Source of the DNA: Podospora anserina
Lineage: Eukaryota
NCBI GenBank assembly: GCA_017654855.1
Contig: CM030335.1
Span: 3,100,001-3,164,000, forward strand
Reading direction: 5' to 3'
Length of the DNA: 64,000 bases
In this document: positions 3,001-30,159 of the stretch, one piece after another
Numbering within the stretch: position 1 is the first letter of the stretch
Layout of the letters: every line of letters begins with the position of its first letter
Notes under the pieces: generated by a model
What the model saw: the letters and a program-made list of their open reading frames with translations, nothing else
Database searches by the model: none
What the model was told of the DNA's origin: nothing
Translations under genes and position numbers: made by a program

Positions 3001-6000
3001 CTATTACGAAAGTCCTTAATATATAATAAATACGATAATTAAAGTTTTTTTTAAAATTTAATTTTTAAATTAATTATAAAAAGGGTTCGGAGAACGCTAA
3101 AGTAAATATATTTAGCCGGCGAGCTAACTACTATAAAGATATACTTAAGGAATTACTATTATTATTTAAGGAAGCGTTAGACGGTACTTTTAAATATTTA
3201 TTATAATTATAAATAAAATATTACGTAGTATATTATAAAAAAATTACTTTTAATAAATATTAAAGAAAATTAAATAATAATATTACGGAATAATATTAAT
3301 AAAAAAAGTTAGAGCTATAAAGTATTTAAAAGGATAATTAAGGAAAATTATAATATAAAAATCGAATATACGTAATATTAAATAATAAAATAATATTAGT
3401 AATAAAGATTTACGGATTAAAATTTAAAGGATATATAAGTATTGTAAAGACTATAGAAAAAATTAAATAGTACTTTAATTAATTAAAGATTAAAAATAAT
3501 GTTAAGGAAACTATTTAATTATACTATACGTATAAGAAAATAAGGGTTACGAAATATAAACTTTATAGATTTCTAAAGTTATTATTAATAGTAAAACGAT
3601 TATAAAGTTTAATTATAATAAACTTTATTACTAAATTACTAAAGTTTAAAAATATAGTAACCGGCGTTAAGTATAATAATATATTAACGGTAATTAATAA
3701 GTTTACTAAATAAATATACTTCTTACCTTATAAAGAAATTTAATTAATAAAGTAATTAACGAATATAATATTATAATATATTATATTAATATATATATAA
3801 TTAAAAAAATTTATTACGGACCGCGATATTAAATTTATATTAAAATTTTAAAAAATATTAATAACGAAGCTAAAAGTAATAAATAAAATATTTTCGGTTT
3901 ACTACCCTTAAATAAACGGTTAAACGGAACGGTTTAATTAAATTATAAAATAATATTTATAAAATTATATTAATTTCGAATAAAATAATTAAATTAAATT
4001 ATTATTTATAATATAATTAATATATAATATATTACTAACTAAAATAATTAAAGTTATACCGTTCTTCGTAAACTTTAAATATAAAATAGATTTATAGTAA
4101 AAACCTAACGTTAAAGTACTTAAAGTTAAGGTTAAAGTAAATAAATTATATATATTTTATAATAAACTTAAATAAAAATTAAAATTTATAAAGGAAAGGA
4201 TATAGAAATATTATAATATTAAAAAACTTAAAGGACTTTACTTTAAGGGGGGGAATATAATATTTTTTTCTATACGTAATTTATATATTAAAAAACTTAA
4301 TAAGAAGCTAGATTATAAGAAAGTAAGCCTATTTAAGGTTAAAAGGAAGATCTTAAAGACGGTATTCGAATTAAAGCTACCTAATATAATACGTTTACGA
4401 TTATATACTTTTTATATTTTACTTTTAAAACCTATACTACCGGTAAATAAAGTTAATATATAGATAGTAGCGGAAAATAAAGAAAAAAAATATAATATAA
4501 AAAAGATATTAGATTTACGGTTTAATAAAAATTAATTAAAATATTTAATTAATTAATTAAAATATCCGGTTATAAATAATTTATAGGAACTATAGGTATA
4601 CTTTAATTACTTAAATAAATAAAAAAAATTTTATTAACGATATTTAGACCGATTAAAACCTAAGTAAAAGAGACGAGTCTTTAGATTACTATTAAATAGT
4701 AATAATATAAAAATTAAAGAACTTTAATAAGAATCGAACCTATACCTTTAATGTAATAATTAATATATTATATATTATACTATAAAATTAAAAAGTATAA
4801 AGGAGATTAAATATAAATAATATTACGCGCCTTAATTACTTTAGAAAGTAAAAAGTATATTAGCGGCAATATTTTAAAAGGTTAAAAAGGAAGGACCGGC
4901 TACGCCCGGGTTTAAAAAAAAGTTAGGCGGTTAATCGAAGTCTAAAAAAAAATCTAAAAAGGAAAGATCGGAAAGAATAGCGGAAGCGTCCGCCGCTAGC
5001 GGGCTATATAAGGTAGTAGGCCGCGCGGAAAACTCTCTTTCTTCCTCCTTAAAGAGCCGAGATTCGCGACGGAAAGTAATAAAGGTTCGAGCCTTAAAAG
5101 TACGCAATTACACTTCGAAACGAAGAAACTTATTTAAAGTAACCTACTTTTCGGTATCTAAACGTTCTTTTTCCCTAATTAAAGAACGGACTATAGGGAT
5201 AATTAAAAAGGAAAAGGGAAAGCTAAAAAAGAAATTTATAATTTACATTATAAATATTATAATAAAAATAATTTAAATTAATATATAAAAGGTACCGGTC
5301 GTATCGAAGGAAAGTTATATATTAAAAATTATTTTTTTTATAATAAATATATTCGGGTATAATAAAATTAAACTTTTCGAAAAAATATATTTAATTATAA
5401 CGACGGTCGGTACTCGTATAAATCGATTTCCTTATACGATTAAATATAACGGTTAAAATAAAAAAGGAAAGGAACTTATAATAGAAATATAAAAAAAAAG
5501 GGGATCGGTAATTATTTTAAAAATATAATTACCGGAATATCGACTTAAAAAAAAGGGTATTATATTATAATTAACCTAATAGTAAATCGCGCTATATATA
5601 GGGCGTAAGTCGCCCTTAACTAATTATTTAAAAAGTTAGGAAATAAACTAATTAAAGCTAAATAAAAGTATTATAGTACTAAAGCTCACGAGTAGTTTAT
5701 AGGATATAAAATATTAGGGATAATTAAAGGTATAGTACAACGAGTATAATATAAATATAATATATTAAAAGTAATTAAAAGTATAGTACGACGAGTATAA
5801 TATAAAATATAATGTATTAAAAGTAATCGGGCCTATAGTAGGGCAAGTACCTTACGGCCCTAAGGTCTATATATACGGAGGAACTAACTAATATAAATAA
5901 ATAATTCCGTAGTATATAATTTAAGTTTATATTTACGGTAACTAGTATTTATATTAAAATATCTTATTATATATTATTTAGCTGCACCGAACTAATTATT

Positions 6001-6056
6001 AGAAATTACCTTTAACTAATATCCCTTTTAGAGGTTCTATATAGGGGTTCGTTATA
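1..6056 (+). mobile_element. RIP-degenerated Ty3/gypsy (chromovirus) LTR retrotransposon, 5' end outside window; probably crapaud/Yeti-like
   Basis: Extremely AT-rich, TpA-rich sequence. Back-mutated pol motifs occur in gypsy order: RT FV(P)KKDGGL ~1992, YxDD-like TATTTTAATAAC ~2322, RNase H VEAD ~2760 and (HD)KELLAIIEAFEE ~2890, integrase ITDRD ~3813 and YHPQTDGQTER-like ~3900, then GPF and chromodomain-like segments ~4320-4600. A polypurine tract at ~5547-5557 precedes the LTR. Confidence 0.92.
5563..6056 (+). repeat. 3' LTR of the gypsy element (~494 bp, RIP-mutated) with internal ~52-bp tandem repeats
   Basis: Starts TATTATA (RIP of TGTCACA) just after the PPT and ends GGGGTTCGTTATA. The 3' half aligns with the LTRs at 6347 and 60077. 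The unit GTATAGTAC.ACGAGTATAATATAAA... repeats about 3 times at ~5670-5840. Confidence 0.8.
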
Positions 6057-6346
6057 GGTAGCCGAATTTTCTTTATTTTGTATAGGCGTAAGCATGTCTT
6101 TTAGCGAAACGTAGCTAAATCGTTGTCTTTTAAGTTAAATTCTAGCTCATTTGCCTATTGTAATATACGAAGCCTTCGTGGGTATAAAGTAGCAGTCGAG
6201 TACGAACTCTACTATAGAGTTTTACGTTAGTATATAGCAATTTATTATTAAATTATAAAAGGTTACCCTTTTTTACTTTATTATCACAGCGTCTACAACG
6301 CTATAGCTCCAGTACACTTAATAGTGAGCCATAAGTCTTATATAAG

Positions 6347-6764
6347 TGTCACAGACCAACCATATAGCAAGATAGAGTGGGGACTGCAGCAAGCCGTGGT
6401 AACTAGTTAAGTAACAGATAACAGCGGGGCTATAGGACAGTGGGCGCTCACCTCTTAGCAGAGGTAAGCCGGCTCGCCAGGAGCGCTAGGTAAGCGAGGT
6501 GAGCCAGGATAGATCACCAGGAGCGCTTAATGATCGAGGTAATCCAAGTACGGAGGTACCTAAAGGATTAAGGTTTATATATACGGAGGAACTGGCCGGT
6601 ATAGATAGACAGTTCCGCAGTATGCAATTTAGCTTATATTCACGGTATTTAGTATTTACATTAAGACATCTTTGTTGTGCACTGTTTAGCTGCACCAAAC
6701 TAATCGTCAGAAGTTACCTTCAACCAGTATCCCTTTCAGAGGTTCTGTATAGGGGTTCGTTATA
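6347..6764 (+). mobile_element. Solo LTR (418 bp) of the same gypsy family
   Basis: TGTCACAGACC...GGGGTTCGTTATA, flanked by a perfect 5-bp TSD ATAAG (6342-6346 and 6765-6769); homologous to 60077-60432. Confidence 0.92.
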
Positions 6765-6769
6765 ATAAG

Positions 6770-7060
6770 TTATTTTCGCTGCACCATACAAACTGTAAGT
6801 GCATTCCGTTACAGGATTCTTAAGCCTATATATGGAACATAACCTTTAATAGTAATTATAAAGTAGCTTAATTATAAAGCTTAGTAACTAAAAAGCTTTT
6901 AAAAGTTATCGATTTAAAAAATCTAAAAATAAAGTATTTCTAAGCTGTTAATTTGAATGTGAGTAAGTTAAGATATTGCTGTATTTCTGGATATAAAATA
7001 GACTTATTTTTAGCTATAGTTTTAATATATTCTTATATTTTCAAATGTTTTACCTAGGAC
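6770..7060. repeat. AT-rich RIP-like relic
   Basis: High AT and TpA content next to the LTRs; no recognisable motif. Confidence 0.4.
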
Positions 7061-10000
7061 GGTTAGACTACGCTGCGTAAAAGCCGCTATGCCTTGCTCC
7101 CTAGCTAGACTCGACTGGAGATTTTAATTTAATGGCACTGGAAGTGACGCTATCTGCTAGTCCGTTTCAATGTCAACTGTGGCAGAGCACTAAAATAGAC
7201 GCCCAAAGCTGCGCTAATTTCACAATGTTCTCGTGCTGGTATCGCTAAACACAAGAGACGCGGGGAAACTGGGAGACGCTACGGAGCTTTGCGGGGACGA
7301 CACAGCCCTAAACTCGGTGCCTCAGGTGAGAAGCCGGGAAGCTGAGCTTCTCTTGCATTCAACACATGAACACTGGAACAGTCGGTGAGCATCCCGTTTT
7401 TCGAGCAGCGCTTACCTCCCGCTTGCCTGCATTATTCTCGGAAAGGGCGCAGATCTCAAGATCAGACAGATCTCGATGGAAGATGGGGGTCCCCGGCTCC
7501 GTGAGGACCACGTCAACACTATCATGACCAAGAGAGTTTGGTGTTGTAACCCCGTGATCGGAAGAGACTTGAGCTGAGGTGTCGTAAAAAGAGCCCCAAT
7601 GAGAATGAACGTCACGCCGTCACATCGACCAAACAGGGACTGCCGCTGGCGGCCTTGGTCTCGGTCTCATCCCACGTCTAAGACGCCTCGACGAGATTGT
7701 CGAAATACTTCGCATGATCGGGTGTTGTCCTCGGAGATGGATAGATAACGGTCCATCTTGAACAGTTTCAGAACGGGTTCCATGTGGATGGCGGGGATGA
7801 GATCCGCGAGAGACTCCAAAGGGAACAGGCAGGTTGTTGCAGGAGGCTTGCAGTGAGGTGGTATGTACATATTGATATCCCAGCAATCAGAAAACCGGAT
7901 TATTCTTTTAAAATTGATTTATTCAAAATAACCAAAAGAGCGAATGGAGACGGCAACAACGCATCAGGCCTTCGGTTGGATCGTAGCTTCCGCAGCAAGC
8001 ACGCCTTCCATGCACGACAGCAGCAAGCCCCGCGCGAAGCTGCATCGAGGCAGGAGCATTGCAGCAGCAATACAGGAGGCAGGAGGAGGCAGGAGGGGTA
8101 GCTTTGCGGGAAGGAGGTGTCGAGTTGCATCACTCCCGCTGATAAGCCTTATCGACCCTGTCGTTGACTTGTTGCTGCCCATCCCCGCCAGCCATCGTGT
8201 ACAAATCATCGTGGCCCATTTCTTACTGCCCGCTCACCGATTTTTTTTCTGACTGCAATGCTGCATTTTTTTCATGTCTTGCCCCTCCGCTCGGCCAACT
8301 CTTCTCCTCCCCGGGCCATTCCTAGCCAAACAATGCTCACTGCCACGGCCATGGCGATATCCCGCTGGCCTGTCCTCTGCGAGCCATCTCGGATGCCAGC
8401 GTGGGGGATTTGTCATCGCCATCCGGAACACATTCACGGCCAACAGAAGCTTCACGGTTTTGGGTCCGGTCCTCTGGTCCTCTCGTAGAGGAAGTTAAAG
8501 AAACTGCTGACAACAGGAATTGATCGACATCTTGCTTGCAGCATCTTCTTCGACGCCGTCTTGCAGCACATATGTATACTTGGCGCGCCTACTTCCGTGG
8601 TCTGGTCCCGGATGTTTTGAATACACACTGTTTTGTCGGGAGTCCGAACTAAACCCTCTCTTACACCTCATTGGTCAACTTTTCACTCTCACCTCGACAC
8701 ACAACGAACCTACGGCCGAGAGACAGCGATAATAGGTATTCGCTTCCACATGGTCTGAATAACCGTTACGTACTGGTTCATCAAGATTGGGTACGGTGAG
8801 CAGGTTGGGAGTCTCAAATCAATGTCCCAAACGTCGACACACAGATTGGGCATCGTCTAAAATGGATGATGCAATCAACAAGGATTCAATATGCTCTGTT
8901 TGTCAAAGTTAACGGCTTGAACTCGGCCGGTCTGATGGGTCGGCCCTTTGTCTGTCATCGGCGTATCAAGGTGTAGTCAGGATTGGATCTTCTCCCCGCT
9001 CCGGTCAGCGTTTCAAACCTCGGTTAGGTCTCCGGCATCCATCCTGGAATCGGAACGGTAACCGACTCCGTGTTAGGAAGGCTTCTAGAAGAACTCGCCG
9101 TCCACACCACGTTTCTGACTTGGATGGGATACTCTTGACACATGAACATGAATAGTAGTTGGCCACGAGCGCCGAGGCTACCGTTCCTTTTGACCCTGAA
9201 GCGTCTTCCGCTACCCGCCCGCCACTGAGGAGACTGACTCGATGACGGGGCCACAACGGGCACGAGTTTGGTATTGAGGAAGAAGCCGTTTCACCTAGAG
9301 TTGATGACCAGAGTTGGGATGGCGACTGACCCGGTTCTTCTTGCTGTTGGGCAAACGAGACGCTGGGCATTGAGTGTACATCTAGCGATGTACATGGTAC
9401 TTTGGGGCCCTCAGACGGGTTAATGGCGAGGTCAGGTCCACCGAAAGCACGACGTGGCGAGAGCTCAGAGCCCTTCTGAGACCACCAGTATCGCCCACGT
9501 GCTTGTCACAGTGGACGTTCGTCTGGACTCTTCCAGCCTCCATTTCTGTAAAGGATGGCAACCTGACAGCACACACACATCCTTTCTTCTGCCTCGGCCA
9601 AAGCTTGGCGAATGCCGGATGATAGAGCCAGGGCTGCACAGGGCCTGGGTTTACATCATGATTTTTGCAGTAAAGCTGTACACCCGGGAGTGTTAGGACA
9701 TGGAGAGAACAAACCGGGGATGGAAAGCACCGTGCCAGTCTGTGTGTCTTTGCAGATTCCAGAGTGAAGGGGTGGGTCACCACGTGGTGTGCTTGAAGTC
9801 AAGTTGTCAGAGAGGTATGCAAGATCGTGGCTTTTTGCGGGGAAAAGGTAAGCTCGTGGGCTCTGGCTTCGCATCTGTTGTCTTTTGATGTCTTTCCTCG
9901 GAAGGGTTGAGTGGCCTCTAAATTTGGCATGTGGTCCAATGACCCTGCGGTTGATGAGACATTTATGTGTTGGACCAACTGACAGCGAGGGCTAGCCTCA

Positions 10001-12155: not shown

Positions 12156-13204
12156 ATGGCCAAAATCCCCACCACCCAAGTCTTCCAAAAGGGCTCCGTC
12201 TGGATGTACTCACCTTCCCTGCCACCCGCCATCCTCTTTCTGATCCTCTATTTCTTCGCCTGTCTCTACATCACCTACCTCACCTTTTACCGGTACAAGA
12301 CCTGGTACATGACCGTCTTCCCTCTTGGTGCTTTGCTGGAAGTGGCAGGCTACGCGGTGAGGATATACTCGGTCAAGAACCAGGGGAACATTGTACGCCC
12401 CCCTCCTAGAGACCCCCTTCCTACCCCCGAACACAGCCCAACCCTCCCTCTCAACCCCACTCATCCCTTCTTCTTGTCTCTAATTTCTAACCCAAAAAAG
12501 GCCGCCTTCATAGCAACCCTCACCCTCCACGTCCTCGCCCCCCTCCTCTTTGCCGCAGGGAACTACCTCCTCCTCGGCCGGCTGATCTCTCACTCCCTCC
12601 CCACCCGGCACACCCTCCTCAAGATCCCCACCCGCTTCATAACCCGCCTCTTCGTCGGGTTCGACATCCTCGCCGCTGCGATCCAGGGGTCTGGGACCTC
12701 CATCGCCGCGTCGGCGAACTGGACTGGACTGAAGGCACTATCGGGAGTTGACGTGCTTGTTGCTGGGCTGGCGGTGCAGGTTGCGGGAGTGGGGGTTTTT
12801 CTTTTGGTTCTGGGGAGGTTTACTTTTCTGGTGAAACAGCTGGGGAGCAAGGGGGGAGGTTGGGGGGGGTTGCTGGTGGCGGTTTGGGTGTCGAGTGGGT
12901 TGATTTTCGTGAGTACTTCAATTGACTGGAGACGGTTGGTTGGGGAAAGGGAGGGAGGGTGCTAATCATGGATAATACCTAGGTGAGGTGCATTTACCGG
13001 CTGGTCGAGTTCGTGGAGGGGATTGACGGGTATGCCTTTCGGAATGAGTGGTTGTTTTGGGTGTTTGAGGGGACGGGGATGCTACTGGCGATAGGGCTGT
13101 TTTGTATTTGGCACCCGGGGGCTTGCTTGAAGAGGGGGGAGGTGACAGAGGGGGAGGTGACAGAGGGGGAGAAGAGTGAGGGGGGAAGTGACACTCAGGC
13201 GTGA
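12156..13204 (+). CDS. RTA1-like 7-TM lipid-translocating/resistance protein (3 exons; introns 12393-12500, 12909-12982)
   Basis: RTA1 motifs YSPSLPPAILF, EVAGYAVR, APLLFAAGNYLLLGRLI, FVGFDILAAAIQGSG, RCIYRLVEF, EWLFWVFE, HPG. GT..CTAAY..AG introns join the frames. Confidence 0.9.
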
Positions 13205-13231
13205 GGTTGTTGTCAAGAGATGGCCGTTCAC

Positions 13232-14656
13232 CTAGCGAGCAGCTAGCCTCCTGACATAATTCATCGGCCACTCTGCGTATTTTTCGTACTCGACAGGCAG
13301 CCCGGCAGCAAGCTTCTCCATCCAAGCAATGCAGGTTCTTTTTCGATAGGCAAAACGCCCACCTTTGTTGCACGTAGTGAGAGCAATGTGCCCGATGGCA
13401 AACTCGATGAGAACAAAGTGGATGAAGAGCAGTTGGGCTGGATGGTTGTTGGGGTCGATAAAGGGGGCGAACTCTTCATTGCTGGAGTGGTTGAATAAGG
13501 AATACAGGGCGGCAAACTGAGAAAAGGCTGTATAGGTAGCAAGTCAGCATTTGATCTCTCCCAGAAAGACCGGACTGGTACTGACCTTCTGACGCCGACG
13601 TCCTGGCAGCTTTTGCAATTGCCTCTGTTGAAGCCAAGAACTTGACCTCCAACGGGCTCTTACACAGAGGTCCGAGTGCCCTCAGAGACTTCAAAAAGTC
13701 ACCAATGAGAATCTCCTCATCCTCGCTCAAATCCAAAGGAACGATCCCAATGACTCGTCGAACGCTATCACAGTACCCTTCCTGTGTAAACTCACGGAAC
13801 AACGAGTTCTTCATGCTGCCCATAGCGGTATTTGCAATAATATGACACCCCCTAGACATGGCGAGAAACTCAGGCATACCCTCAGCCATACAGCTCGCTT
13901 GAAACGCCAAAGCCATCATAGCAGCAAACCTCGCATCCCCCTCAGCCTGTGAAGAGCAAGGCTTACTCAAACTGTCGTTAAGAGACTGTATCGCCTTGAC
14001 ACGGTGAGCCAGCGCTTGCGAAGAGCAATTCCCCCCATGCAAATCAAGATGTGACGCCGCCAGCCCAAGCATGGCATGCATAAGATAATCATACTGGTGC
14101 CCAGTCAGCGTAAGATACTCCCGAGGGTTCTCCAAGTTTGAGAGCTTACGCTATGCGACAAACACGCCGTCTGCATCCAAATCTGATCCCCCTGTATCGG
14201 CAAAGGCGGGTACGCAGTCACCAAAAAGTGATGAAAGTACCTCATATCCTCCTGCGTAAACACCGTAGCCGTCGATGACTGCAAGCTGTTCGTTGGGACC
14301 ACCGTCATCACCGAAGCCGAAAACGCCGACGCCATTCTCGGCCGCTCAGGGTACTCACACACCAGTCCGACCCTCGCGCAGTTCGAGCAGGAGGGGATCG
14401 TCTCCTGGCATTTGACCTTTCGCCTCTTGCAGTGGAAGCAACCCAGCCGGGACTTTGTGTGTCCCTTTCGCGGGATTGGCTTTCGGCGGGCTCGGGTTCC
14501 TGGTTCTTTGGTGTGGGGTGTGCCGGTATGTGGGGTTGATACCGGTGCTGTCTCTGGCCCGGATGAGTCTTTTGCTGATTCGGGGACACCTCCAGGGGAA
14601 CATGTCGAGCAGGGAACCCAGTGGTCAGAGATTGGTGATGGGTGGTGGTCGTCCAT
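13232..14656 (-). CDS. Zn(II)2Cys6 transcription factor, Upc2/Ecm22-like architecture (introns 14094-14149 and ~13529-13586)
   Basis: RKGHTKSRLGCFHCKRRKVKCQETIPSCSNCARVGLVCEYP Zn cluster; DMRYFHHF and YLMHAMLGLAASHL middle region; spliced frame ends ...WPMNYVRRLAAR*. The start codon is a best guess. Confidence 0.88.
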
Positions 14657-15170
14657 CCTTGTTTGATGATGCACAAGTGGCTCTTCGTCAAGGGTATATT
14701 CTCAAATTCTTTACATAAAAAGGGTGTTATAAAAAGTCGGCCTTGGACATTCTCCCCTTCTGATGATGCGGCTGGGGTTGTCGTGGACTCGACGCTCTTC
14801 AAGGGTTTGGTCAGCACGACCACATTAAAGGGATGGGGCCGAATGACGCGTGTTTTGGGCTGTGTAAAACTAGAGGAAGTGCCATACGCCACCGAACATT
14901 ATCAAATCCAGGGGCTGTGCAGAAAGATAAGTACGAATACTTCCACTTGCTTGCGCGTTGTTGGACGTTGGCGCTGATGGAAGGTAAGCAAGGGTTAGGG
15001 TTGCGATGGCAGGCTGAGAGAAGATGACGATGTATAAGGTGCCGTGAGTTTAAGCTGAGATGATTTAATAGATGATTTAATTAGAATCATGGGATATGAC
15101 TTGTAGATGCTCAGATAAAGCTGGGATCAGATGGTCCAGAAGCTCGGACACTAAGCTCTGGCGTTGTAGG

Positions 15171-15406
15171 TACCCTCGCCACAAAATAGTTTGACACACA
15201 AAAGTAGGTTAACCCATATTATACTATGAACTATACTTTGAAAGTAAATTAATAGGCCTTTAAACGATCTTTTAAAGCCTAGTAACTATCGTTAAAGGCC
15301 TACAAATTATCTTTAAAAGCCTATAAACTATCTTTTAAAGGCCTATAGACTATCCTTCAAGGCATGTTAACCTACTTTAGTATCTCATTATTTTGTGGTA
15401 AGGGTG
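15171..15406. mobile_element. MITE copy 1 (236 bp), ~42-bp TIRs, internal 21-22-bp tandem repeats
   Basis: Ends (T/C)ACCCTCGCCACAAAATA...TATTTTGTGGTAAGGGTG; 5-bp TSD GTAGG at 15166-15170 and 15407-15411; second copy at 29590. Confidence 0.9.
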
Positions 15407-15658
15407 GTAGGATATAGCTCAACTCACATGGGAACTTTAACAGGCCCCCATGCACTCAACCTCACTCCCTCACAAGATTCCTGCCGGAAGGACGCCCTGG
15501 TAGAAACGCACAACACCATAAAAGCCTCAAGGGTAAGCTTTTCCCAGACCTAATCCAGTACTACAAACCTATTAAGAGCAATCAACATAGTCATTACAAC
15601 CCTCTCAGCATTGTAGGTATCTCAGCATGTCTAAGCTTTTATATGTACTCCGCCCATC

Positions 15659-17574
15659 TTAAAAGTCATCCTCCCCTGAGCCCGAGATGATAACATTGTT
15701 CACCTTGAGCACCATGCGGCACAGCTGTGTCGCCAACATGAGCTGCTGCTTCTTTCCAATCAATGGGTCAATAACAAACGCCTCCTTCATGTTGTTGGAC
15801 CCGCGGCCCATGCAGTCCACACCCAGACGGCCACGGCCAGATGGGTCCTTGACCTGTTGAGACTTGACCTCGGCAAGAGTGGCAATAGGGTTGAGACCGC
15901 TGTTCTCGGCAAGGGCCATGGGGATGGCATCAAGAGCCTCGGCGAAGGCGCGCATGGCGTATTGCTCGAGACCGGGGGTCTTGACAGCCTCGTCCTCAAC
16001 GGCCAGAGAGCATGCAATTTCGGCGGAACCACCACCATAGACAACGCGGTTGTCACGGACAAGGTTCCTTACGACGCAAAGGGCATCGTGGAGGGAGCGC
16101 TTGGCCTCATCGATAATCTATGGGAGTGTTAGTTGAAATCCGGTTCTCGGTAAAGATCTCTAGAGAATGTACATACCATCTTGTTGCTGCCCCTAACAAA
16201 GACTGTTACCGCACGAGTGTTGGCACACTCCTCGATAACAAGCATCTTTTCCCTTGTAGTGCCAAAGGTCATTTCTCTGACGATACCAGCGGTGCCAAGC
16301 TTCTCTGGCTTAAGGTCCTCGAATCTGGGAACAATACGGCCGTTTGTCGCAATGGCAATCAGCTCAATCTCTGGGCCACCAACCCATCTTACGGCGGGGA
16401 GCTCGTTCTGGAGGAGGAGATGGTTGGCCTCGTCGTCGAAACCCCACTGGCAAATGGCCAGATTGGCACCGGCATCCTTTATTTGTTGAATCATCTCGAC
16501 GAACTTCTCGCGCTCGTAGCTTTGCAGCTTCTTGAACTCCTCGACGCTGCTGATCTCCAACTTGTGCTTGGTCTTGGGCTTGGGGGGCTCGAACGCGCAC
16601 GTCAGAATGGCGATCTTGGCGTCCCGGACCTCGGAGGGCATCTGTGGGTGTGAGAAGTCCTTGTCGACAATAACACCCTTGACGAGGAGTGTGTCCTCAA
16701 GAGAGCCGCCGACCTTGCCGTCCATCTTGATCAGCTCAAAGTCGACATCCTTCCGTTCCAGATCCGCCACAGACAAGACCGCATCTACGGCGATCTTGGC
16801 AAACTGATCGTGAGCCTTGGAAACAATCTTGCTGCCCAAACTTGTTCTCGCAACCTTGGTCAGGTTCTCTGTGTTCTCCTTGTCAAACTCAATAACATCG
16901 GAAATTCTGTCGAGTTCCGCTACGGCAATGTCGCAGGCCTGATCGTAACCATCGGCGATGCGGATGGGGTGGATACCCTTGTCGATGAGCTCGGCGGCCT
17001 GTTCGAGGAGAGCACCGGCGAGGACGACAACACCAGTGGTGCCGTCACCGATTTCGTCGTCCTGGGACTTGGAAAGCTCCACAAGCAGCTTGGCTACGTG
17101 GTTTGTAATCTCCATCTGCTGCAGGATGGTCGCGCCATCGTTCGTTACTGTGATATCGCCGTCGGGGGAGATGAGGATCTTGTCGAGACCACGGGGGCCT
17201 AACGAGGTCTTGACGATGTTCGCAACGGTGCGGGCAGCGAGGATGTGGGACTTGACGGCTTCGTTGCCATACTGGCGCTTCTTCTTGCCCTGACTGAAAA
17301 GGGGTATTAGCGGGGCAACGTGGGGGAGGATGTGTTGGACTTGAAAGAATCGAGGGCGGTACTGACTCTCTGACTACAATGAAAGGCCGTCCCTGTTCAT
17401 CTTTCATCACCGCCGCTGTGGTATGCATCCGTCAGTAACGCGGTGACCGTACCCCGGGGAAGGTGTCGTCGCATACCGTTCGACAAGTCCAAATCTATAA
17501 GCCGGGTAGTTAGCACGCTGGGGTCTGCTTAGGAATAAAGCGGCAAGGGTGCTTCTGGACATACTCATCGCCAT
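15659..17574 (-). CDS. CCT5: T-complex protein 1 subunit epsilon (chaperonin CCT5), 5 exons including 2 micro-exons
   Basis: [70 protein letters not shown]. The 5' exons ATGGCGATGA and ATTTGGACTTGTCGAACG are bounded by GTATG..AG introns. Confidence 0.96.
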
Positions 17575-18257
17575 CTTGAAGGATTGTTTGTTTGTCTCTT
17601 GTAGGAAGATGCGCCAAGGTCAGGGTCGTGGTGGTGCTGGCTTCCGAGACGGTTTCCAGAGGTTGGTCAATAAACAGGGCTCCTGGGCTTGCTCCTCCAC
17701 CGCTAGGCAGCTTTCGCTATCGCCAGAGCTCAGACGCAATCTCAAAAAATTGACCCTCCCAGTTGGCGGCCACGGCAGAATCTAAGTCCGACTCAGCCCT
17801 GTGGTTGGCTGTCAACAGCCCGGCCCCTAGGAGCCCCACGATTTGGGTGTTCACCGCCTTTGGGCACTGTGCCTGTGATGGTGGGGTTAACCTGGCAAAA
17901 CGGCAGGACAACCCCGCCATCGACATCACTTGTCCCCATCACAGTCCAGAGAAGCTTCCAAGCAAGGTCAACGCCAAACCAATGCGCCTGGGCAGAACTC
18001 AAAAGACTTTAATTGAGAGGTTCACTTTCTTCAAGATCAGGGACTGTATTGGCGTCAATTCAGAGTTCTTCACACCGCAACAGAGTTTTTCACACCACAA
18101 CTCAAAATTCACACTCGCCACTCAAACAACTACTTAAACAGAGGACTCGCTCGCTCCAGCCTCAGATTTCTTTCACCCTAGACCAAGTCATCAACACCTG
18201 AACCGCACTTCCCACCAACACTAGCCAGATACACACAGATCTACACCAACCGACAAG

Positions 18258-20761
18258 ATGTCGCGTCACAGAGCTATCCGCAACTTGGACTATGAGGAGG
18301 TGCTGGATGAGTACGAGGTGGATCTACAGGAAGAGGAGGAGAATCGACTTCTTATGGAACAGGGCGTGGTCGATGTTCGCAGTGCCCTCGACACGGAGGC
18401 GTCAAAGGTCACCAAAGAGCAAATCGAGGAGGCTCTCTGGCACTACTATTTTGACGTTGACAAATCGGTGACATATCTGACCAACAAATTCATCAACCGC
18501 CCAGCACCAAAGGCACCGAAGCCCGCCACTCAGAAGCCCACTGGTAAGTACCTAACCCCTGCAACAGCTACAATTTCCTGCGAGTTTGAAGACTCGTCAG
18601 ACTGGGCCGAGAACAACCGACACGGACTGGGCGGCCGATGTTCATCACAGACGGGGTCTCGACAAGACGATGTGGGCTTCTGGGTGTCGGGATCATGCCC
18701 TTCATATCCCCTGCCCCAGGCATCCCTGCCTGCCCTCTTTCACGACATGCCTTGGGGAAACATCCCAAAGGATAGAGAAAGTGTCTTGATTCCGCCCGTG
18801 GTACCGCGATCGCGGTGTGGGCTTCTTGGAGGCACAGGAGCGGCGCCAAAGATGACCAAGCTCCAAGCACTGGCTGCAGCGAGGAAGAAGAAGGCTCAGG
18901 AGAAATCGTCGGAGCAAGAGGTGGAACAAACTCGAGCTCAGATGACGGGCCTTTCTGTCAATAGCAGTTCGACAGAGAAGGAAAACATGCCCTTGTCAGG
19001 TGCATTCAGCAAGCGTCTCAAGACCTCTTCGTCAACTGCACAGGGGCGTGTGCCTATCATTCCTACAGAGCCGAGATCAGAGTCTGAGCAGCAGAGCGCC
19101 AATCCCATCACAAAAGAACCAGAGGTGGTCGAAGAGCCTGCTCAGGCCCGGCCTGTCAAGAAAGCTCAACCTTCCGCCTTTGCCCAGACGCTTTTTAGCA
19201 GCCATACCCCCACCATCACCATCCGACAGGATGTGGTTACATTGGGACTCGCGCCGTCTGTCCTTGAAGCATTTTCGAAGCCCAGTCCGGATGACATCGT
19301 TCTCGCGGCTCAAGCGAAAGGTTCGCTTTCGACAAAGAGCGGGTGCTAACATTGATGCTGATAGTTGATACAGCCGGAAAGAAGCCCCCAGCCGGCCAGA
19401 GCAAAAAGTCAAAATCAAGCAATACAGATTCACTATCCAGTTCGGTCTCGGAGCTGAAGATCGACGATACCCCTCTTCCAAAAAGCCGAAACATCAACGT
19501 TCTCTCCGAGTTTGAGAAGAGCACCAAAAAGAAGAGTGCCAGTTTTGTTGTGGTTGGCCATGTCGATGCTGGCAAGAGCACCATGATGGGTCGGCTACTG
19601 CTTGACCTTGGTGTTGTTGACCAGCGTACTGTCGAGAAACTCCGAAAAGAAGCCCATACGATAGGCAAATCATCATTCGCTCTTGCTTGGGTTTTGGATC
19701 AGGGGTCAGAAGAGCGGACCCGCGGTGTCACCATTGATATTGCCACGAACCGATTCGAGACAGAGACGACAGCTTTCACCATCCTTGACGCCCCAGGACA
19801 CAGAGACTTCATCCCCAACATGATAGCTGGGGCCAGCCAGGCTGATTTTGCCGTTCTTGTTATCGACGCCAGCACGGGTGCCTTTGAGTCCGGGCTCAAG
19901 GGTCAAACCAAGGAACACTCTCTCCTACTTCGAAGCATGGGCGTGGCGCGCATTATTGTGGCCGTCAACAAGCTTGACATGGTGAATTGGTCACAGGAGA
20001 GATTTGACGAGATCAAGAACCAAGTCTCCGGATTCTTGTCAGCCACCGGCTTTCAAAAAATGAATATCGCCTTCGTACCAGTATCCGGCCTGCACGGTGA
20101 CAACATGGTCAAAAGATCCGAGAACCCTGCTGTTGGGTGGTACACTGGACCCACCCTCATCGAAGAGCTTGAGCGTTCGGAACCAAGTGCTCGAGCTACG
20201 AAGAAGCCTCTCAGAGTCAACATTTCCGAGGTTTTCCGCACACAGCAAAGTCAGGCCACAGTTTCTGGACGTGTTGACGCCGGATCTTTGCAAATGGGAG
20301 ACGCCGTTCTGGTCCAGCCGGCCACGGAGAAGGCCTTCATCAAGTCCATCCTTGTGGACGAGGCCCCGGCTGACTGGGCTGTCGCCGGACAGAGCGTGGT
20401 ATTACATCTCAGCCACATCGACCCAATGCATGTCAAATCTGGCGACATTATCTGCGACCCCAACAAGCCAATCCCCAAAGATAAGACGTTCACGTTGAAG
20501 GCGCTGGCGTTTGACTTTTTGATGCCGATGCAAGTGGATGTCCACCGGGGACGACTACACTCGGCAGGGAAGATTATCGCGATGCCTGCGCTGCTGGACA
20601 AGACCACCGGTGGGGTGAAGAAGAAGAATCCAAGGCTGGTGAAGCCAGGGGAGGTTGCCAGAGTGCGAGTGGAGTTGGACGATCAGGTGCCGCTGGAGGC
20701 TGGTCAGAGGGTGGTTTTGAGAAGTGGTGGGGAGACTATTGCTGCTGGTTTGCTGGAGTGA
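18258..20761 (+). CDS. HBS1: HBS1 translational GTPase (ribosome rescue), with an alternatively spliced SKI7-like internal segment
   Basis: HBS1_N domain (IEEALWHYYFDVDKSV); G motifs GHVDAGKS, RGVTID, DAPGH, NKLD, SGL. Donors at 18544 and 19321 are both phase 1 to acceptors at 19364/19373. Confidence 0.93.
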
Positions 20762-20884
20762 TTATCAAGATATCGATAGAGGGACAAGATCGGGATGCTA
20801 TAGGGGTTAATCAGTTTTCTTTTGTCAAGGCAAGCTATACCAGATATCTCTCGGGAATCTTTAGATAGGAGGGGCATGTAATTT

Positions 20885-21850
20885 TTTTTGAGCTTTTGTG
20901 AAACAATCTCCGAGCTTTTCATGGCTAGTATCTGAGCTTTTGTTAGACGGTATCTGAGTTTTTATTAGAATTATCTGAGCTTCTCAAGAAACCTGGAAGT
21001 TATCCCATACTTACAATCTCGCCATCTTTATACTGAGTGCGTTATACTACATAAGTATATTGCATTAAATAGAGGTAGGAAAGGTAAGGCCTTGTAGTGG
21101 GAGTGGAAGAGGCCCATAGACGTATGTAGGCTAAATACATAAGGTAGCTTTCGCTACACACCGCAATCTTCCAGGTTTAATGGATAGAAACCCAGGTGGC
21201 ACTCCATATATGAGGTGCAAAGCTGATGGATCAAAAAGAGAGATATCGAGGAGAGCTAGTATGAAGAATGATATGCCAGTCCTCCACCAGTGCCAGTCCA
21301 CTTGACAGCCTTCTCCCAAATCAATTATCTTGCACCTATCATTTGGAGTGCCACACTGGCTTCGTCTAAAATAAAGTCTCTGTCCATCAAATAGTCTCTA
21401 AGCTTTTATTAGACAATCTCTCAGTTCTAATTAGACACTATCTGAGTTTTTATCAGAGTATCCAAGTTTCATTAAATACTATCTACTTTATAAATTGTAT
21501 GTCTAGGCGTTTAGTAACAATGATTTTGAGCTTTTACTAGCCAGTCTTTGGACTTATGTTAGATATTATCTGAGCTTTCATTGGACAGCAGCTCAGTTTT
21601 CATTAGATAGTATGAGTGTGAGTGTAAGTGATTTTAAAAAAAACCCCGAAGCCAACGCAAGATAGGTACGCTGAACAGTGGCCCTGCCCACTGCAAGAAG
21701 GCGAAACAATTCGCCCGTCGGAGGTTGCCGGAGGTATCTAGAAATTGGCAGGAAGACATCTTACAACCTCAAAAGACTTCTTCACCTTAAAGATTAGTCC
21801 CCACGAGCGGAGATTATTAGACACTATCTCAGCTTTTCAAGAAAACTATC
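20885..21850. repeat. Degenerate 22-bp tandem repeat array in three blocks (consensus TATCTGAGCTTTTATTAGACAC)
   Basis: GAG cores at 20890, 20912, 20934, 20956, 20977; about 10 more units at ~21395-21615; 1-2 units at ~21813-21850. Confidence 0.75.
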
Positions 21851-22912
21851 CTATGCTTCGAGCTGAGCAACGTTGTATTTCCTGAGTACAGAGAGATGTC
21901 GTTGGAATTGGCATGCCGCCTCATCAATCAATCCAGCTTGGTGTTGATACAAGTGGGGCGTCTTGGCGCTACCAAAAGCGGGAGGCGGATAGCCGTAAGC
22001 CGTAACTTTGGGAAAAGGCCACTCTGGCACTTGAGCAGGCAGGGATTGGTGCCGATGAATGGTCCGTGAGTTGCCAATATGTGGGGTTATTGAAACTCCA
22101 GTGAACAGCTTGCAGTTCCATGCCCCAAGCTTCTGTTGGACGACAGAATCGTGTAGAAGCTTCAGGTGGACGTTGAGCAATGCAGTGTCGGAGCAACACT
22201 TGGGTGAAGTGAATAGACAGAGGCAAACATGGGATATGGACAGCATTGGAGGAGCACATGAATCAAGTAGGGGAAGTAGTTGAGGACAGAGAGAGACAGA
22301 TCTGGAATCAGCTAGCGTATTGGATGATCTTGCAAGTGCTGATGAGAGCTTCGGAGCTCTAGGCGCGCTTCAGGTGCAGTTGAATGGATGGCAAAAAAGG
22401 AACAATCGGGGGAGGCTCAAGTAACAGTGACTCGTGGGAGAATATCAAGCTGCGGGGTAATTGGTGGGAGCAGCTCAAGGCTGCAAGTCACCGCTACCTT
22501 TTGTTCCCATGGAAGGTTGCAATAGCGGGGGCAAACCAACCAAGTGAATCGATTGGGCAGGCCCTGCAAGGCCCGGAAGGCGGGCGCGGGCTGCTGGCGG
22601 CCAGTGCTAAAGTGTGAGGTGGCTAGAGCCCAGAATAAGGACAGATTTCCCAATTCACCACCAGAAAATTTAAGGATACAAGTCAGCTTCTGCTCTCTTC
22701 CTTCTTCCTCTTCCTCTCCCCAATCTCAACGATTGATCCACCACTCCGGTACATCAACGTCCTCTCTTACCTGGTCAGCTGGTAGGATTGGTATTTGACG
22801 ACAAGCCCATAGTTGGCATTCATCCTTTTTCCATACTCTTTGTCACACCTGCTAGCAGGAGAGCGAGAGGTTTTCTTTTCTTTACACGTCAGTCACACAC
22901 ACAGCCTTCGGC

Positions 22913-25207
22913 ATGGAACGTCGATCGCGGAGCTGGGCCCTCGGCCTCAGCATCATTGGGTTTTTCGCCCTTCTCTTCTCTGCTGGCTTTGTCCAGCAAG
23001 TAAAAGCGGACGATGTCTCGGAATATGGCACTGTTATCGGTATTGTATGTTCTACCCCTCCACAGCCCTCCTTGGTTTGCGGTCAGGACAATTGCTAACG
23101 AGCATTCTCTACAGGATCTGGGAACCACCTACTCGTAAGTTCTACACAAACGACGGCGTCGTCGATTTCTCGAACCACCCCGCCGCTGCTGCTCTGGTCT
23201 TTGGCGCAACTGCGAGCACTTGTGACACGGTGTCAACTTTGACAGATCGGCAGTGCGGGGTGTGGGGGAGCAAAAGCAGACTTGGGAAGCAGGAAGCTAA
23301 CTAGACCCTAGTTGCGTTGGTGTGATGCAGAAGGGCAAGGTCGAGATTCTCGTCAACGACCAAGGAAACCGTATTACCCCGTCTTATGTCGCCTTCACCG
23401 ATGAGGAGAGATTAGTCGGAGACGCCGCCAAGAACCAGGCTCCCGCCAACCCCTACAACACTATCTACGATATCAAGCGCCTCATCGGCCGCAAGTTCTC
23501 TGAGAAGGAGCTCCAGACTGATATCAAGCACTTCCCCTTCAAGTATGTACCCAATGACTTTTGAGTCGCTCCTGACAACCACTAACTTGCGTTTGCAGGG
23601 TCGTCTCCAAGAATGACAAGCCGGCCGTCACCGTCAAGGTCAATGGTGAGGACAAGACCTTCACCCCCGAGGAGATTTCCGCCATGGTTCTCGGCAAGAT
23701 GAAGGAGACTGCTGAGAGCTATCTCGGCAAGAAGGTCACCCACGCCGTTGTTACCGTTCCCGCCTACTTCAACGACAACCAGCGCCAGGCCACCAAGGAT
23801 GCCGGTATGATTGCCGGTCTCAACGTCCTTCGCATTGTCAACGAGCCCACCGCCGCTGCCATCGCTTACGGTCTTGATAAGACCGATGGCGAGCGCCAGA
23901 TCATTGTCTACGACTTGGGTGGTGGCACTTTCGATGTTTCCCTCCTCTCCATCGACCAGGGTGTCTTTGAGGTTTTGGCTACTGCCGGTGATACTCATCT
24001 TGGTGGTGAGGATTTCGACCAGCGTGTCATTAACCACTTCGCCAAGACCTTCAACAAAAAGCACGGTGTTGATGTCACCACTGACGCCAAGGCCATGGGT
24101 AAGCTCAAGCGTGAGGCCGAGAAGGCCAAGCGTACCCTTTCCAGCCAGATGTCCACCCGTATTGAAATCGAGTCCCTTTTCGGCGGCAAGGACTTCTCTG
24201 AGACCCTTACCCGCGCCAAGTTCGAGGAGCTCAACAACGACCTCTTCCGCAAGACTCTCGAGCCTGTGAAACAGGTTCTCAAGGACGCCAAGGTTGCCAA
24301 GGGCGAGGTCGATGACATCGTTCTTGTTGGTGGTTCTACCCGTATCCCCAAGGTCCAGGCCCTCATTGAGGAGTTCTTTGGTGGCAAGAAGGCTTCCAAG
24401 GGCATCAACCCCGATGAGGCCGTCGCTTTCGGCGCTGCTGTCCAGGCTGGTGTTCTTTCCGGTGAGGAGGGTACTGAGGAAATCGTTCTCATGGATGTCA
24501 ACCCTCTTACTCTCGGCATTGAGACCACTGGTGGTGTCATGACCAAGCTCATCACCCGCAACACCCCTATCCCTACCCGCAAGAGCCAGATCTTCTCCAC
24601 CGCCGCTGATAACCAGCCCGTGGTCTTGATCCAGGTTTACGAGGGTGAGCGTTCCATGACCAAGGACAACAACCTCCTCGGCAAGTTCGAGCTTACTGGC
24701 ATCCCCCCCGCTCCCCGTGGCGTTCCCCAAATCGAGGTCTCTTTCGAGCTCGACGCCAACGGAATTCTCAAGGTTTCCGCCCACGACAAGGGCACTGGCA
24801 AGGCCGAGTCCATCACCATCACCAACGACAAGGGCCGCCTTACCCAGGAGGAGATTGACCGCATGGTTGCCGAGGCTGAGAAGTACGCCGAGGAGGATAA
24901 GGCCACCCGTGAGCGCATTGAGGCTCGCAACGGTCTTGAGAATTACGCCTTCTCCCTGAAGAACCAGGTCAACGATGAGGAGGGTATGGGCAAGAAGATC
25001 TCAGAGGAGGACAAGGAGACCATCCTCGACGCCGTCAAGGAGACCCAGGACTGGCTTGAGGAGAATGCCGCCACTGCCTCCACCGAGGACTTCGAGGAGC
25101 AGAAGGAGAAGCTGTCTGGCGTTGCTTACCCCATCACCAGCAAGCTTTACAGCGCCGGTGGTGCCGGTGGCGAGGACGACGAGCCCGCTGGCCATGACGA
25201 GCTTTAA
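22913..25207 (+). CDS. KAR2: ER Hsp70 chaperone BiP (introns 23045-23114, 23135-23311, 23543-23598)
   Basis: Signal peptide; spliced [44 protein letters not shown]-terminal HDEL. Confidence 0.98.
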
Positions 25208-26000
25208 AGGAGTAACGTAGCATCATAGATTCCCCAATGTTTTTTCGCGTTTTTTTGATGGCTCGATGAAAAAAGAGAGAATCATCATCACATAATGAAG
25301 GTCCTCGAAGAGATGATGTGTCATATGTTTGTGGATGTGGTCTTTTGTGATTTTCGGGTTGGGTGAAATGGGTATATTCATCATGGTCATAGGAAGGAAG
25401 CAAGGATGGGCATATATTCTGTGATTGTCTGGTGTGTGTCGGTTGTAGTAGGTGGCGGGCGCATCGCGGGCTTTTGTAAAGTATGTATGAAGTATAAAGA
25501 AAAAGAACCTACTTGAAACATTTGAATGTCCCAAGATGATGATGTGAATGTTGTCTGCTGAATCTTGGTTGAATGGAAGTTGGCAATGTTCGATGGGATG
25601 TGCTACGATGTCATCAAAGAGCATGATGGAGGCTATTTGGAACCGGACGTCTGACATTCGTAATTGCAGGAAAGAACAGTGGTTGGCCATGGCTTTGATG
25701 CAGGTAGCATCGTGGTGATGATGTGACAGCCTCGAAGATATCAACCGTTGTCGCTGCGTCTTTGGGTGCATCCTCACCAACACCGGCATATCGCTGATCT
25801 ATCACTTAATCCACTCATCACTTGCCTCACTTCTTCATTTGATTGTGAACTCTTGAAGATTTGGGCCAATTTTGCCACAAAATAGAGGCTATGTGTTGGT
25901 TGGAGTGTGGTGGGTTGGGACTTGGGAGTGTTTGATGTGACAAGGTGGTTTGGGGATTGATCAATCATGATGGCTATGTTTGTGTAAAGTAAACAACACA

Positions 26001-26114
26001 GGCTCAATGGTCTAGTGGTATGATTCGCGCTTCGGGTTTTCTTTACAAATCCAGAACTTGGGAAACCAGTTCAAGCCTTGTGCGAGGTCTCGGGTTCGAA
26101 TCCCGATTGAGCCC
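26001..26114 (+). tRNA. tRNA-Pro(CGG) with 42-nt intron (26037-26078)
   Basis: Acceptor stem GGCTCAA/TTGAGCC; D arm TGGTCTAGTGGTATGA; anticodon stem CGCGC/GTGCG with loop TT-CGG-G; T loop GGTTCGAATCC; 72 nt after splicing; T tracts downstream. Confidence 0.95.
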
Positions 26115-27332
26115 GTTCCTTTTGTTGTTTTTGGCTGTGGTGGTGCTGTTGGGTTGAGTAAGCACTTTCTTTTTGGCTGGGGTGGGACTTTGGGGAGTTG
26201 GCATGGTGTGAAGGAGGGAGAGGAAGCTGCGGTATGGATTGATGGTTGGTAGGTGATTGTTGGACTACGGGGGTCTTGGTGAGCTTTGTGAGGTTGAGGA
26301 GCTGAGAATGGAGACCTCAAGACACGAGACTCGGGGACTTGGGAGGCTCAACCAGTGAATTATGACGCTGAGATCAGCAGGTCTAAAGATTGGGCAAAGC
26401 CTATCACATTGGATATTCATTCACGGCACGAAACTGAGTTGGCTGGTTGGAATAGTGATTGTAGCCTGCAAGTGTGTTTTCATTGCACAAGTGAACTTGA
26501 ATCTGGCGAGCAAAAAGCATCTTGTGACAGACCTGATGTTAGAATAGGAGACTGAAGTTGGGGTTATGGTTGTGAACGAAATATCCTTTGCGAAGCCATG
26601 ATTCTGTTTCATATCAACTGACTGACGATAGTTCTCGGCGTCTGACTCACACGTGATGATGTTAGTAAGAAGGATGCAATTATGGTTTGCGCAGTCTTGG
26701 TCGTTGTCTTGGTGGGTGAGAGGTGTGTCACATATTCCTCACAGGTGGCCACATTAGGTAACCAACTGGCTCTGTAATGAGGAGAAAGCTAGCCGGTCAA
26801 CTAGGCGAGGCCCGTTTCAATCGAGTACTGAGCCAAAGGTCGAAACCACCTGTATGGGCCTCGTAAAAGACATCTTCATCTTGAGTAAACAAGTGACTTG
26901 ACCGGAGCAACTGGTGGTCACAGTTCACTTCTAGAAAACAAAGTGGGGCTCTTGGACCCAGGGCTTCCCGCATTGCCAGGAGTTGTGACGTCCACAGTTG
27001 CCCACACGACCACCCCCCACTATTGGGGACCGCCACCAGAAAATTGCGAGGAACTGTTCTGACGGGCCGCCTCTTATTAATACCCCTTTTGCCTGTGGTT
27101 GTGTATTATTCATCACTCGACCCTCAAACATCCTGAGAGAATCTTTGCTTTCTCTCACGCAGCACCTACAAATCGAAGTGCCCATTGCTCTTTTTTTCCC
27201 CGGACAGGTTTGGCCGAAGAAAGGAGACATCAAAACTCTGACTCGACCAGAACCCCGCCATCCGTCGAGCGCGACATCACCACCACCAACTTGCGATCAC
27301 CTCCGATTCGAGAAACGAGATATATTTCAGCT

Positions 27333-29145: not shown

Positions 29146-29589
29146 AGCGCTTGATAGAGGGGGTGTGCCACTTTGTTTGTGCATTGGGGTTTTAGAACTG
29201 AGAAATGGTTACATGTTTGTTGCATGAGTTGGTCTTTTTGGTCTTCACATGATTGGGCATCTGTTGACAATATCTTTGTTGTTTGTGTAAGAGCATGTCT
29301 TCAGCAAGGCTGTCGCTGACGCAGCGCAAGCATTTCGCAAATTTTACCACGGCACTTCGTCGCCTTCCGTTTTAAGAGTTCGGCACTTTTTTTAGCCACT
29401 GTGCCACAACCTATCTTTGGCAGAAGACTTGAATCTCTCTTCAACCTCTTTGAGACCCATCATCACAACTCGCCTACCGTCGCTATGGCCCGTCACACTG
29501 GTGCCGTTGTTTATCATGAATAGGTATCACGCTCTGCGCCGAGAGCTGTAACCACGTCTCATTCTTCCACTGGTTGACCTTTAGTTTGG

Positions 29590-29833
29590 CACCCTTGCCA
29601 CAAAATAATCGAGACACAAAAGTAGGTTAACCCATACTATACCGGGAACTACCTTATACCTTAAAAGTTAATTAATAGGCCTTTAAACCATCTTCTAAGG
29701 CCTATTAACTATCCTTGAAGGTTTATCAACTATCTTGAAGTGCCTATAAACTACCTATCTTTAAAGGCCTATGGACTATCCTTCAAGGCATGTTAGCCTA
29801 CCTTAGTGTCTCAATTATTTTGTGACGAGGGTG
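29590..29833. mobile_element. MITE copy 2 (244 bp)
   Basis: CACCCTTGCCACAAAATAATCGAGACAC... and ...GTGTCTCAATTATTTTGTGACGAGGGTG; 42-bp TIR with 6 mismatches; 5-bp TSD TTTGG at 29585-29589 and 29834-29838. Confidence 0.92.
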
Positions 29834-30159
29834 TTTGGTTCGGTGTTGGGGGATAAGTAATGCAATAAGCAGCGCTATTGGCTTGGTCATTCATTCTGCT
29901 TCCAGTTGAGGGAAGCGATTCTCAGCCAGAGCCTGATCACGCGAGTTTTCAGCTTGGACACCCACCAGTCTGGAAGTTCAAGCGGGGAGTCCTCAGTTTT
30001 CTGCTTCTTTGAAATTCCGTTGGCTCTAACATCACGAGAAGCCGAGGGGTTCATCAGTTCCAGTTTTGTTATCAAATGTCAACATGTCGCGCCAACAAAC
30101 TCAGCCTGTCCCCCAGAGGATCACGCCCCGTCAAAAATATCGAGGGGGAATTCCCCATA

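Follow-up and report, generated by a model that had tools for sequence, protein, structure and literature searches.

The stretch of Podospora anserina DNA analysed here, a window of 64,000 nucleotides (assembly GCA_017654855.1, contig CM030335.1, forward-strand positions 3,100,001 to 3,164,000; coordinates below are those of the window unless a chromosome is named), carries two insertions of a MITE (miniature inverted-repeat transposable element) with ancestral CAC...GTG ends and target-site duplications (TSDs) of 5 bp. The explanation that we favour, with a probability of roughly 0.55, is that these are old, fixed copies of the annotated family discodeles, a non-coding cut-and-paste MITE of ~240 bp, whose transposase most likely came from the CACTA/Mirage/Chapaev/Transib (CMCT) clade. 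As an object such an element is ordinary: two old, fixed copies from a MITE family already annotated in a model fungus. Its remaining interest lies in the combination of CAC..GTG ends and a 5-bp TSD, which matches no class II superfamily that the annotation table searched names, and in the clade to which this signature points, one that includes Transib and RAG1. Transib is reported to be missing from fungi, a rust excepted.

A preliminary description of the window, made from its sequence, had proposed two insertions with terminal inverted repeats (TIRs) of ~42 bp and the duplications GTAGG and TTTGG. Alignment of the copies and inspection of their flanks confirmed each of these points. The features of the two elements are as follows.

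15171..15406, plus strand: MITE copy 1, 236 bp, GC 32%
15166..15170, no strand: left TSD of copy 1, GTAGG, identical to 15407-15411
15407..15411, no strand: right TSD of copy 1, GTAGG
15171..15214, plus strand: left TIR of copy 1, TACCCTCGCCACAAAATAGTTTGACACACAAAAGTAGGTTAACC
15363..15406, minus strand: right TIR of copy 1, minus-strand reading CACCCTTACCACAAAATAATGAGATACTAAAGTAGGTTAACATG
15256..15354, plus strand: tandem array of copy 1, period 21, 4.7 copies, consensus GCCTATAAACTATCTTTAAAA
29590..29833, plus strand: MITE copy 2, 244 bp, GC 38%
29585..29589, no strand: left TSD of copy 2, TTTGG
29834..29838, no strand: right TSD of copy 2, TTTGG
29590..29631, plus strand: left TIR of copy 2, 42 nt, in an inverted-repeat pair that is 86% complementary
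29792..29833, minus strand: right TIR of copy 2, 42 nt
29697..29789, plus strand: tandem array of copy 2, period 21, 4.2 copies, consensus AAGGCCTATTAACTATCCTTG

When the two copies were aligned together with 20 bp of flank on either side, similarity ended exactly at the element boundaries. Within these boundaries the copies are 85.5% identical (201 matches, 25 transitions, 9 transversions and 10 gap columns), and 18 of the 25 transitions have A or T in copy 1, which is also the more AT-rich copy. A divergence of 14.5% between the two indicates that the activity of the family is old. The TSDs are perfect and differ from one copy to the other, and are therefore target DNA rather than element sequence. 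The direct repeats of copy 1 cannot be extended past 5 bp; at copy 2 a sixth base (G) also matches, only when the last G of the element is assigned to the target. Perfect 5-bp repeats flank a segment of 236 or 244 bp at 167 of 115,500 window positions (0.14%), so two such duplications would arise by chance with a probability of ~2e-6. Their GC content is 3/5 (60%) in GTAGG and 2/5 (40%) in TTTGG (n=2), and the preference for NNNGG targets that had been suggested has these two sites only as its basis.

The TIRs, ~42 bp long, start with CACCCT and end with AGGGTG. In copy 2 the arms form one pair of 42 nt (86% complementary), and in copy 1 they are split by a 1-nt indel into stretches of 26 nt at 77% and 22 nt at 86%. 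The four terminal arms of the two copies begin TACCCTCGCCACAAAATAGTTTGACAC..., CACCCTTACCACAAAATAATGAGATAC..., CACCCTTGCCACAAAATAATCGAGACAC... and CACCCTCGTCACAAAATAATTGAGACAC..., with TACCC at the 5' end of copy 1 and CACCC at the remaining three ends. The T at 15171 results from a C>T change in CACCC, so that CAC...GTG are the ancestral ends. At up to three mismatches, the first 20 nt of the TIR consensus matched the window four times, and matched none of 100 shuffles. Each copy is predicted to fold into a long hairpin, at -40.9 kcal/mol for copy 1 (z -7.7 vs shuffles) and -44.9 kcal/mol for copy 2 (z -8.4). Neither contains an open reading frame (ORF) of at least 70 aa from stop to stop, and no further copy or fragment was found in the 64-kb window. 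With TIRs, copy-specific TSDs, a small size without coding capacity and many copies of similar size, the two elements are confirmed as a real MITE, well beyond chance. The view that they form a non-autonomous TIR family with CAC...GTG ends and 5-bp TSDs is thus borne out.

Evidence for the many other copies comes from sequencing reads, which were mapped to region 14500-30500 at 80% likeness. The data comprised one DNA run (X23, raw Hi-C reads) and the contigs of three runs (X15, X17 and X19) that were taken as RNA on account of GT..AG joints and a poly-A end seen on mapping. DNA depth in X23 reached 108.7 and 193.0 in the bins that hold the MITE, vs a median of 31.4 across the remaining 28 bins. 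Scaled to element length, this corresponds to ~17 extra full-length equivalents, i.e., ~19 genome-wide, a figure good to an order of magnitude only as Hi-C depth is uneven. Similarly, 285-532 reads lay near the TIRs vs 12-36 at four unique single-nucleotide polymorphism positions. Reads from other copies also speak to the ends: 126 of them stop aligning exactly behind 29833 and continue into mixed flanks (agreement 0.52), which confirms the right end of copy 2, the one boundary of the four for which this check was available among the rows listed. Other members of the family diverge within the element, behind 29636 in 134 reads and behind 29721 in 90, and a variant arm, CACCCTGCCCACAAAGTAACTGACACAG, occurs in 90 reads and also begins with CACCCT, which indicates a subfamily with the same terminus.

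Both insertions proved to be annotated already. The 532-aa translation of an exon (27547-29142) recurs unchanged within PODANS_4_6410 of P. anserina S mat+, while its counterparts in the sibling species examined differ by 1-4 or more residues, and this exact identity places the window on Chr4. For that chromosome, supplementary file 2 of PMC8105982, in the table parts consulted, lists MITE_discodeles at 3004515-3004746 (231 bp) and at 3018932-3019176 (244 bp). The annotated rows start 14,417 bp apart and the window copies 14,419 bp apart; the lengths are 231 and 244 bp in the annotation and 236 and 244 bp in the window. Rows for solo long terminal repeats (LTRs) stand just upstream of the discodeles rows, in agreement with the AT-rich block at the start of the window. 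Chromosome, spacing and lengths agree and nothing in the comparison differs. With the same place, spacing and lengths, both insertions are those already annotated as MITE family discodeles, and neither they nor the family are a new object. The comparison with the species' own annotation that had been called for thus gave a family that was already named.

On Chr4 the same supplement lists eight discodeles rows, of 97-244 bp, that fall between 0.74 and 3.80 Mb, and the name occurs 162 times in the supplementary file, a count that may span several sheets. Mantella, a second annotated MITE family, has rows outside the window at Chr4 935315-935568, 962928-963270 and 1956635-1957017 (253-382 bp; PMC8105982, table parts consulted), and might account for the internal read variants that carry a discodeles TIR. 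The class II families named in those table parts are the Tc1/mariner-like discoglosse, rainette, pelobate and scaphiopus, and the mutator-like dendrobates (PMC8105982). Despite the similar name, a derivation of discodeles from discoglosse was rejected, as there is no TA duplication; family names such as adenomus, amolops, ansonia, dendrobates and discodeles are frog genera, which suggests that they carry no meaning. None of the main texts searched describes the ends, TSD or superfamily of discodeles, the name otherwise appearing only in a paper on frogs; none of them mentions mantella in connection with Podospora, and the word 'MITE' is not in the main text of PMC2441463, as far as that text was consulted (its transposon table is in Additional data file 3).

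We infer the superfamily from the ends and the TSD. The lineages of the CMCT clade are described as having CA..TG termini in most cases and TSDs of 2-5 bp (PMC12730594, sections consulted), and both copies have ancestral CA..TG ends and a 5-bp TSD. Ends of the form 5'-CA..TG-3' (in fact CAC..GTG) together with such a TSD make this clade the most likely source of the transposase. The odds for it are slightly better than even, and they apply to the clade as a whole rather than to any lineage within it. The sections of PMC4592977 consulted report a CMC transposon, Sly1-1, in Neurospora crassa and homologues in Chaetomium globosum; as these are Sordariales, the CMC clade is present in close relatives of Podospora. 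A CMCT member is also more likely than any of the class II families that the Podospora annotation names.

The preliminary description had held that the common fungal superfamilies, with TA, 3-, 8- or 9-11-bp duplications, do not fit, and the 5-bp TSDs bear this out. CACTA/EnSpm elements and the wider CMCT clade, to which Sly1-1 belongs, resemble discodeles in CAC..GTG termini, internal repeated motifs and a TSD within 2-5 bp. CACTA/EnSpm differs in its 3-bp TSD and CACTA ends, vs 5 bp and CACCC in discodeles, and EnSpm was excluded by its 3-bp duplication. Tc1/mariner/pogo elements were excluded because there is no TA, the flanks reading GG/CA..TG/GT and GG/CA..TG/TT (slashes mark the element ends); the TA at the left end of copy 1 stems from a CA through the C>T change, and TG stands at its right end. 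Mutator-like elements were excluded by a TSD of 5 bp, not 8-11 bp. Among published fungal MITEs, those of Epichloe are likewise small, degenerate and close to genes, and were left unclassified by their authors, who noted that CACTA elements are what they most resemble. They differ in their TSDs, which are AT or 2 bp long, and in their ends, which are CTCC or CCC, with no 5-bp TSD among the rows listed (PMC3227409, table parts consulted). The elements of PMC1636069, which are CCC-ended with 2-bp repeats, do not fit discodeles.

Several observations weigh against this explanation or limit its parts. The superfamily call rests on two insertions and a rule of thumb, with no transposase or autonomous partner seen. 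Mirage elements have TSDs of 2 bp and Chapaev elements TSDs of 4 bp. Within the clade, TSDs of 5 bp are described for Transib only. The TIR lacks the heptamer-spacer-nonamer layout of Transib, so that the element agrees with none of the described CMCT lineages taken singly. The copy count is rough, since the depth stems from a Hi-C library, and the match to discodeles is one of coordinates, spacing and length only, rather than an alignment with the consensus sequence. Empty sites were sought among the mapped joints and none of the 15 listed, of 34, skips either element; furthermore, 14 runs of DNA or of undetermined type contain all sampled words of 13000-17500, i.e., the filled copy 1 region. 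With no empty allele found, the ends are set by homology between the copies and by read clipping.

The narrowest alternative, and the one first put forward, is that a true Transib-superfamily (RAG1-like) transposase mobilises the family, which is a special case of the explanation that we favour. Transib elements are described by 5-bp TSDs, a 38-bp TIR with a perfectly conserved CAC, GC-rich targets and a RAG1-like transposase, and are called the sole superfamily of eukaryotic DNA transposons that makes 5-bp TSDs (PMC1131882, sections consulted). The discodeles copies share the 5-bp TSD in 2/2 cases and CAC at TIR positions 1-3 at 3/4 ends, the fourth being TAC through the C>T change, and so far the likeness to Transib and ProtoRAG held. 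It did not extend to the layout of the TIR, which in Transib consists of a CACAATG heptamer, a spacer of 23 bp (12 bp in some families) and an A-rich nonamer with conserved positions 5-6 (PMC1131882). The discodeles heptamer, CACCCTC, agrees with CACAATG at 4/7 bases. Behind spacers of 11, 12, 13, 22, 23 and 24 bp in the left TIR of copy 2, positions 5-6 of the 9-mers read AG, GA, AC, TA, AG and GG and never AA; A-rich blocks lie at TIR positions 11-19 and 27-32, and no A-rich nonamer stands at 12 or 23 bp. In addition, discodeles has internal 21-bp tandem repeats, and the TSDs, at 60% and 40%, are not clearly GC-rich. Nor is a 5-bp TSD exclusive to Transib, as hAT5 families also make one (PMC12730594). 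Among fungi Transib was found only in the soybean rust, according to the sections of PMC1131882 consulted, and in the fungal genome set of PMC5751038 it was counted 0 times by its RAG1 Pfam domain and is stated in the parts consulted to be missing from fungi. PMC13004909 names Transib in its reference list only. Two defining features are thus present and one is absent, and a RAG1-like transposase would be the decisive one; the reading is worth following as a lead and is, in our judgement, quite improbable. The wider proposal, that discodeles was left behind by a CMCT branch with a 5-bp stagger, Transib-related (RAG1-like) or otherwise undescribed, that was once active in Sordariales, we regard as unlikely. 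If true, it would be the first such lineage in Pezizomycotina, where a large survey found no Transib.

The transposase may instead have belonged to an undescribed or unclassified lineage outside both CMCT and hAT, or the partner may be extinct and untraceable, which is possible and at best tentative. None of the described lineages is a full match for the ends and TSD, many Podospora families are labelled unclassified (a word that appears 912 times in the searched supplementary files of PMC8105982), and the divergence between the copies speaks for old activity. The Epichloe rows listed are mostly without a parent, with relics of putative parents for 3/13 families (PMC3227409, table parts consulted). 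Set against this, CA..TG ends with a TSD of 2-5 bp are the stated signature of CMCT (PMC12730594) and a CMC element exists in related Sordariales, so that a simpler reading is available. A hAT lineage with short TSDs is very unlikely. The hAT5 families would supply a 5-bp TSD, and they group, like hAT6, with animal hAT families (PMC12730594, sections consulted). The third terminal base of hAT elements is always G (PMC1131882, Figure S7 legend) and is C in 4/4 discodeles ends, which counts against hAT, and a search of supplementary files of PMC8105982 gave 0 occurrences of 'hAT'. Finally, one could suppose that there is no transposon at all and that a chance inverted repeat or a local duplication was seen, given the small sample of two copies in the window and nothing else. 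The probability of this is close to nil: the copies lie 14.4 kb apart in unrelated intergenic contexts, their different perfect TSDs are hardly to be had by chance, the DNA reads hold the further copy equivalents given above, no shuffle matched the TIR consensus, and the family is published as a MITE. The search of other collections did not help to place the transposase, as a degenerate TIR pattern and a 22-nt subterminal word common to both copies had 0 matches in metagenome contigs, and the TIR pattern had 0 in viral contigs and 0 in prokaryote genome contigs.

Under the explanation that we favour, i.e., old discodeles copies moved most likely by a CMCT transposase, we infer the following manner of transposition. 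The 42-bp TIRs, and probably also the internal repeats of 21 bp, would serve as binding sites for a DDE transposase provided in trans. The element would be excised and then inserted at a target cut with a 5-bp stagger, the repair of which would yield the 5-bp TSDs. Copies shorter than ~500 bp may largely evade RIP (repeat-induced point mutation) as well as silencing by trimethylation of histone H3 at lysine 9 (H3K9me3), and would therefore persist in gene-rich DNA, where one of them now appears to lie within the 3' untranslated region (UTR) of a gene. The sections and tables of PMC8105982 consulted describe MITEs of <500 bp as less prone to RIP and without H3K9me3 silencing, state that H3K9me3 marks the annotated transposable element (TE) families of P. 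anserina, which are silent, "with the exception of MITEs", and give the discodeles rows of both window copies without a histone-mark peak.

Copy 1 sits in a spacer of ~1 kb between two minus-strand genes. One encodes a TCP-1/cpn60 chaperonin (stop at 15659-15661; Pfam Cpn60_TCP1, E 4e-116 and 2e-42) and the other a Zn(2)-Cys(6) transcription factor (Zn_clus, E 1e-10); copy 1 is located upstream of the latter gene. A minus-strand RNA contig of X17 (15284-16117) runs without mismatch from the chaperonin gene to 123 nt inside copy 1, so that copy 1 is part of the chaperonin 3' UTR, at least in the X17 assembly; the chaperonin-gene contigs of X15 and X19 end earlier, at 15727 and 15588, and such contigs cannot reveal the true transcript end. 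This gives a concrete case in which a MITE evades both RIP and heterochromatin and contributes to the 3' UTR of a housekeeping gene. Copy 2 lies between a REI1-like zinc-finger gene, which ends at 29145, and the next plus-strand gene.

Some further features of the window deserve mention. At its start, positions 1-6000 form an AT-rich block with a GC content of 17-23% in 2-kb windows, vs 49-58% in most of the window. Just behind it, at ~5812-7357 by coordinate offset, are solo LTRs of crapaud and grenouille, and the published TE table has no row between ~Chr4 2,989,342 and 2,995,154. The block is probably a TE relic degraded past recognition by RIP. A second region, 20880-21640 and 21800-21850, consists of arrays of a repeat of ~21-22 bp (judged by eye), with the typical unit ...TTAGACAGTATCTGAGCTTTT..., around a core that holds a 34-nt inverted repeat (21187-21220/21330-21363, 76% complementary). 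DNA depth at 20908-21441 is ~2x the baseline (62 vs 31) and RNA contig depth is almost nil. This region is covered by no row of the published TE table and may be another unannotated non-autonomous repeat.

In the mapped reads, a joint from 26233 to 28424 skips 2190 bases, with eight other letters between the two sides, and is carried by 38 X23 reads and by one contig per RNA run; its shorter side measures only 21 letters, and the joint may reflect a short repeated word or a paralogue. The gene at 22510-25713 is very highly expressed (RNA word depth to ~2247), has several GT..AG introns and shows many loose ends that resemble paralogous transcripts. Within it, at 23785-23836, majority differences cluster in the DNA reads, which points to a close paralogue at another place in the genome.

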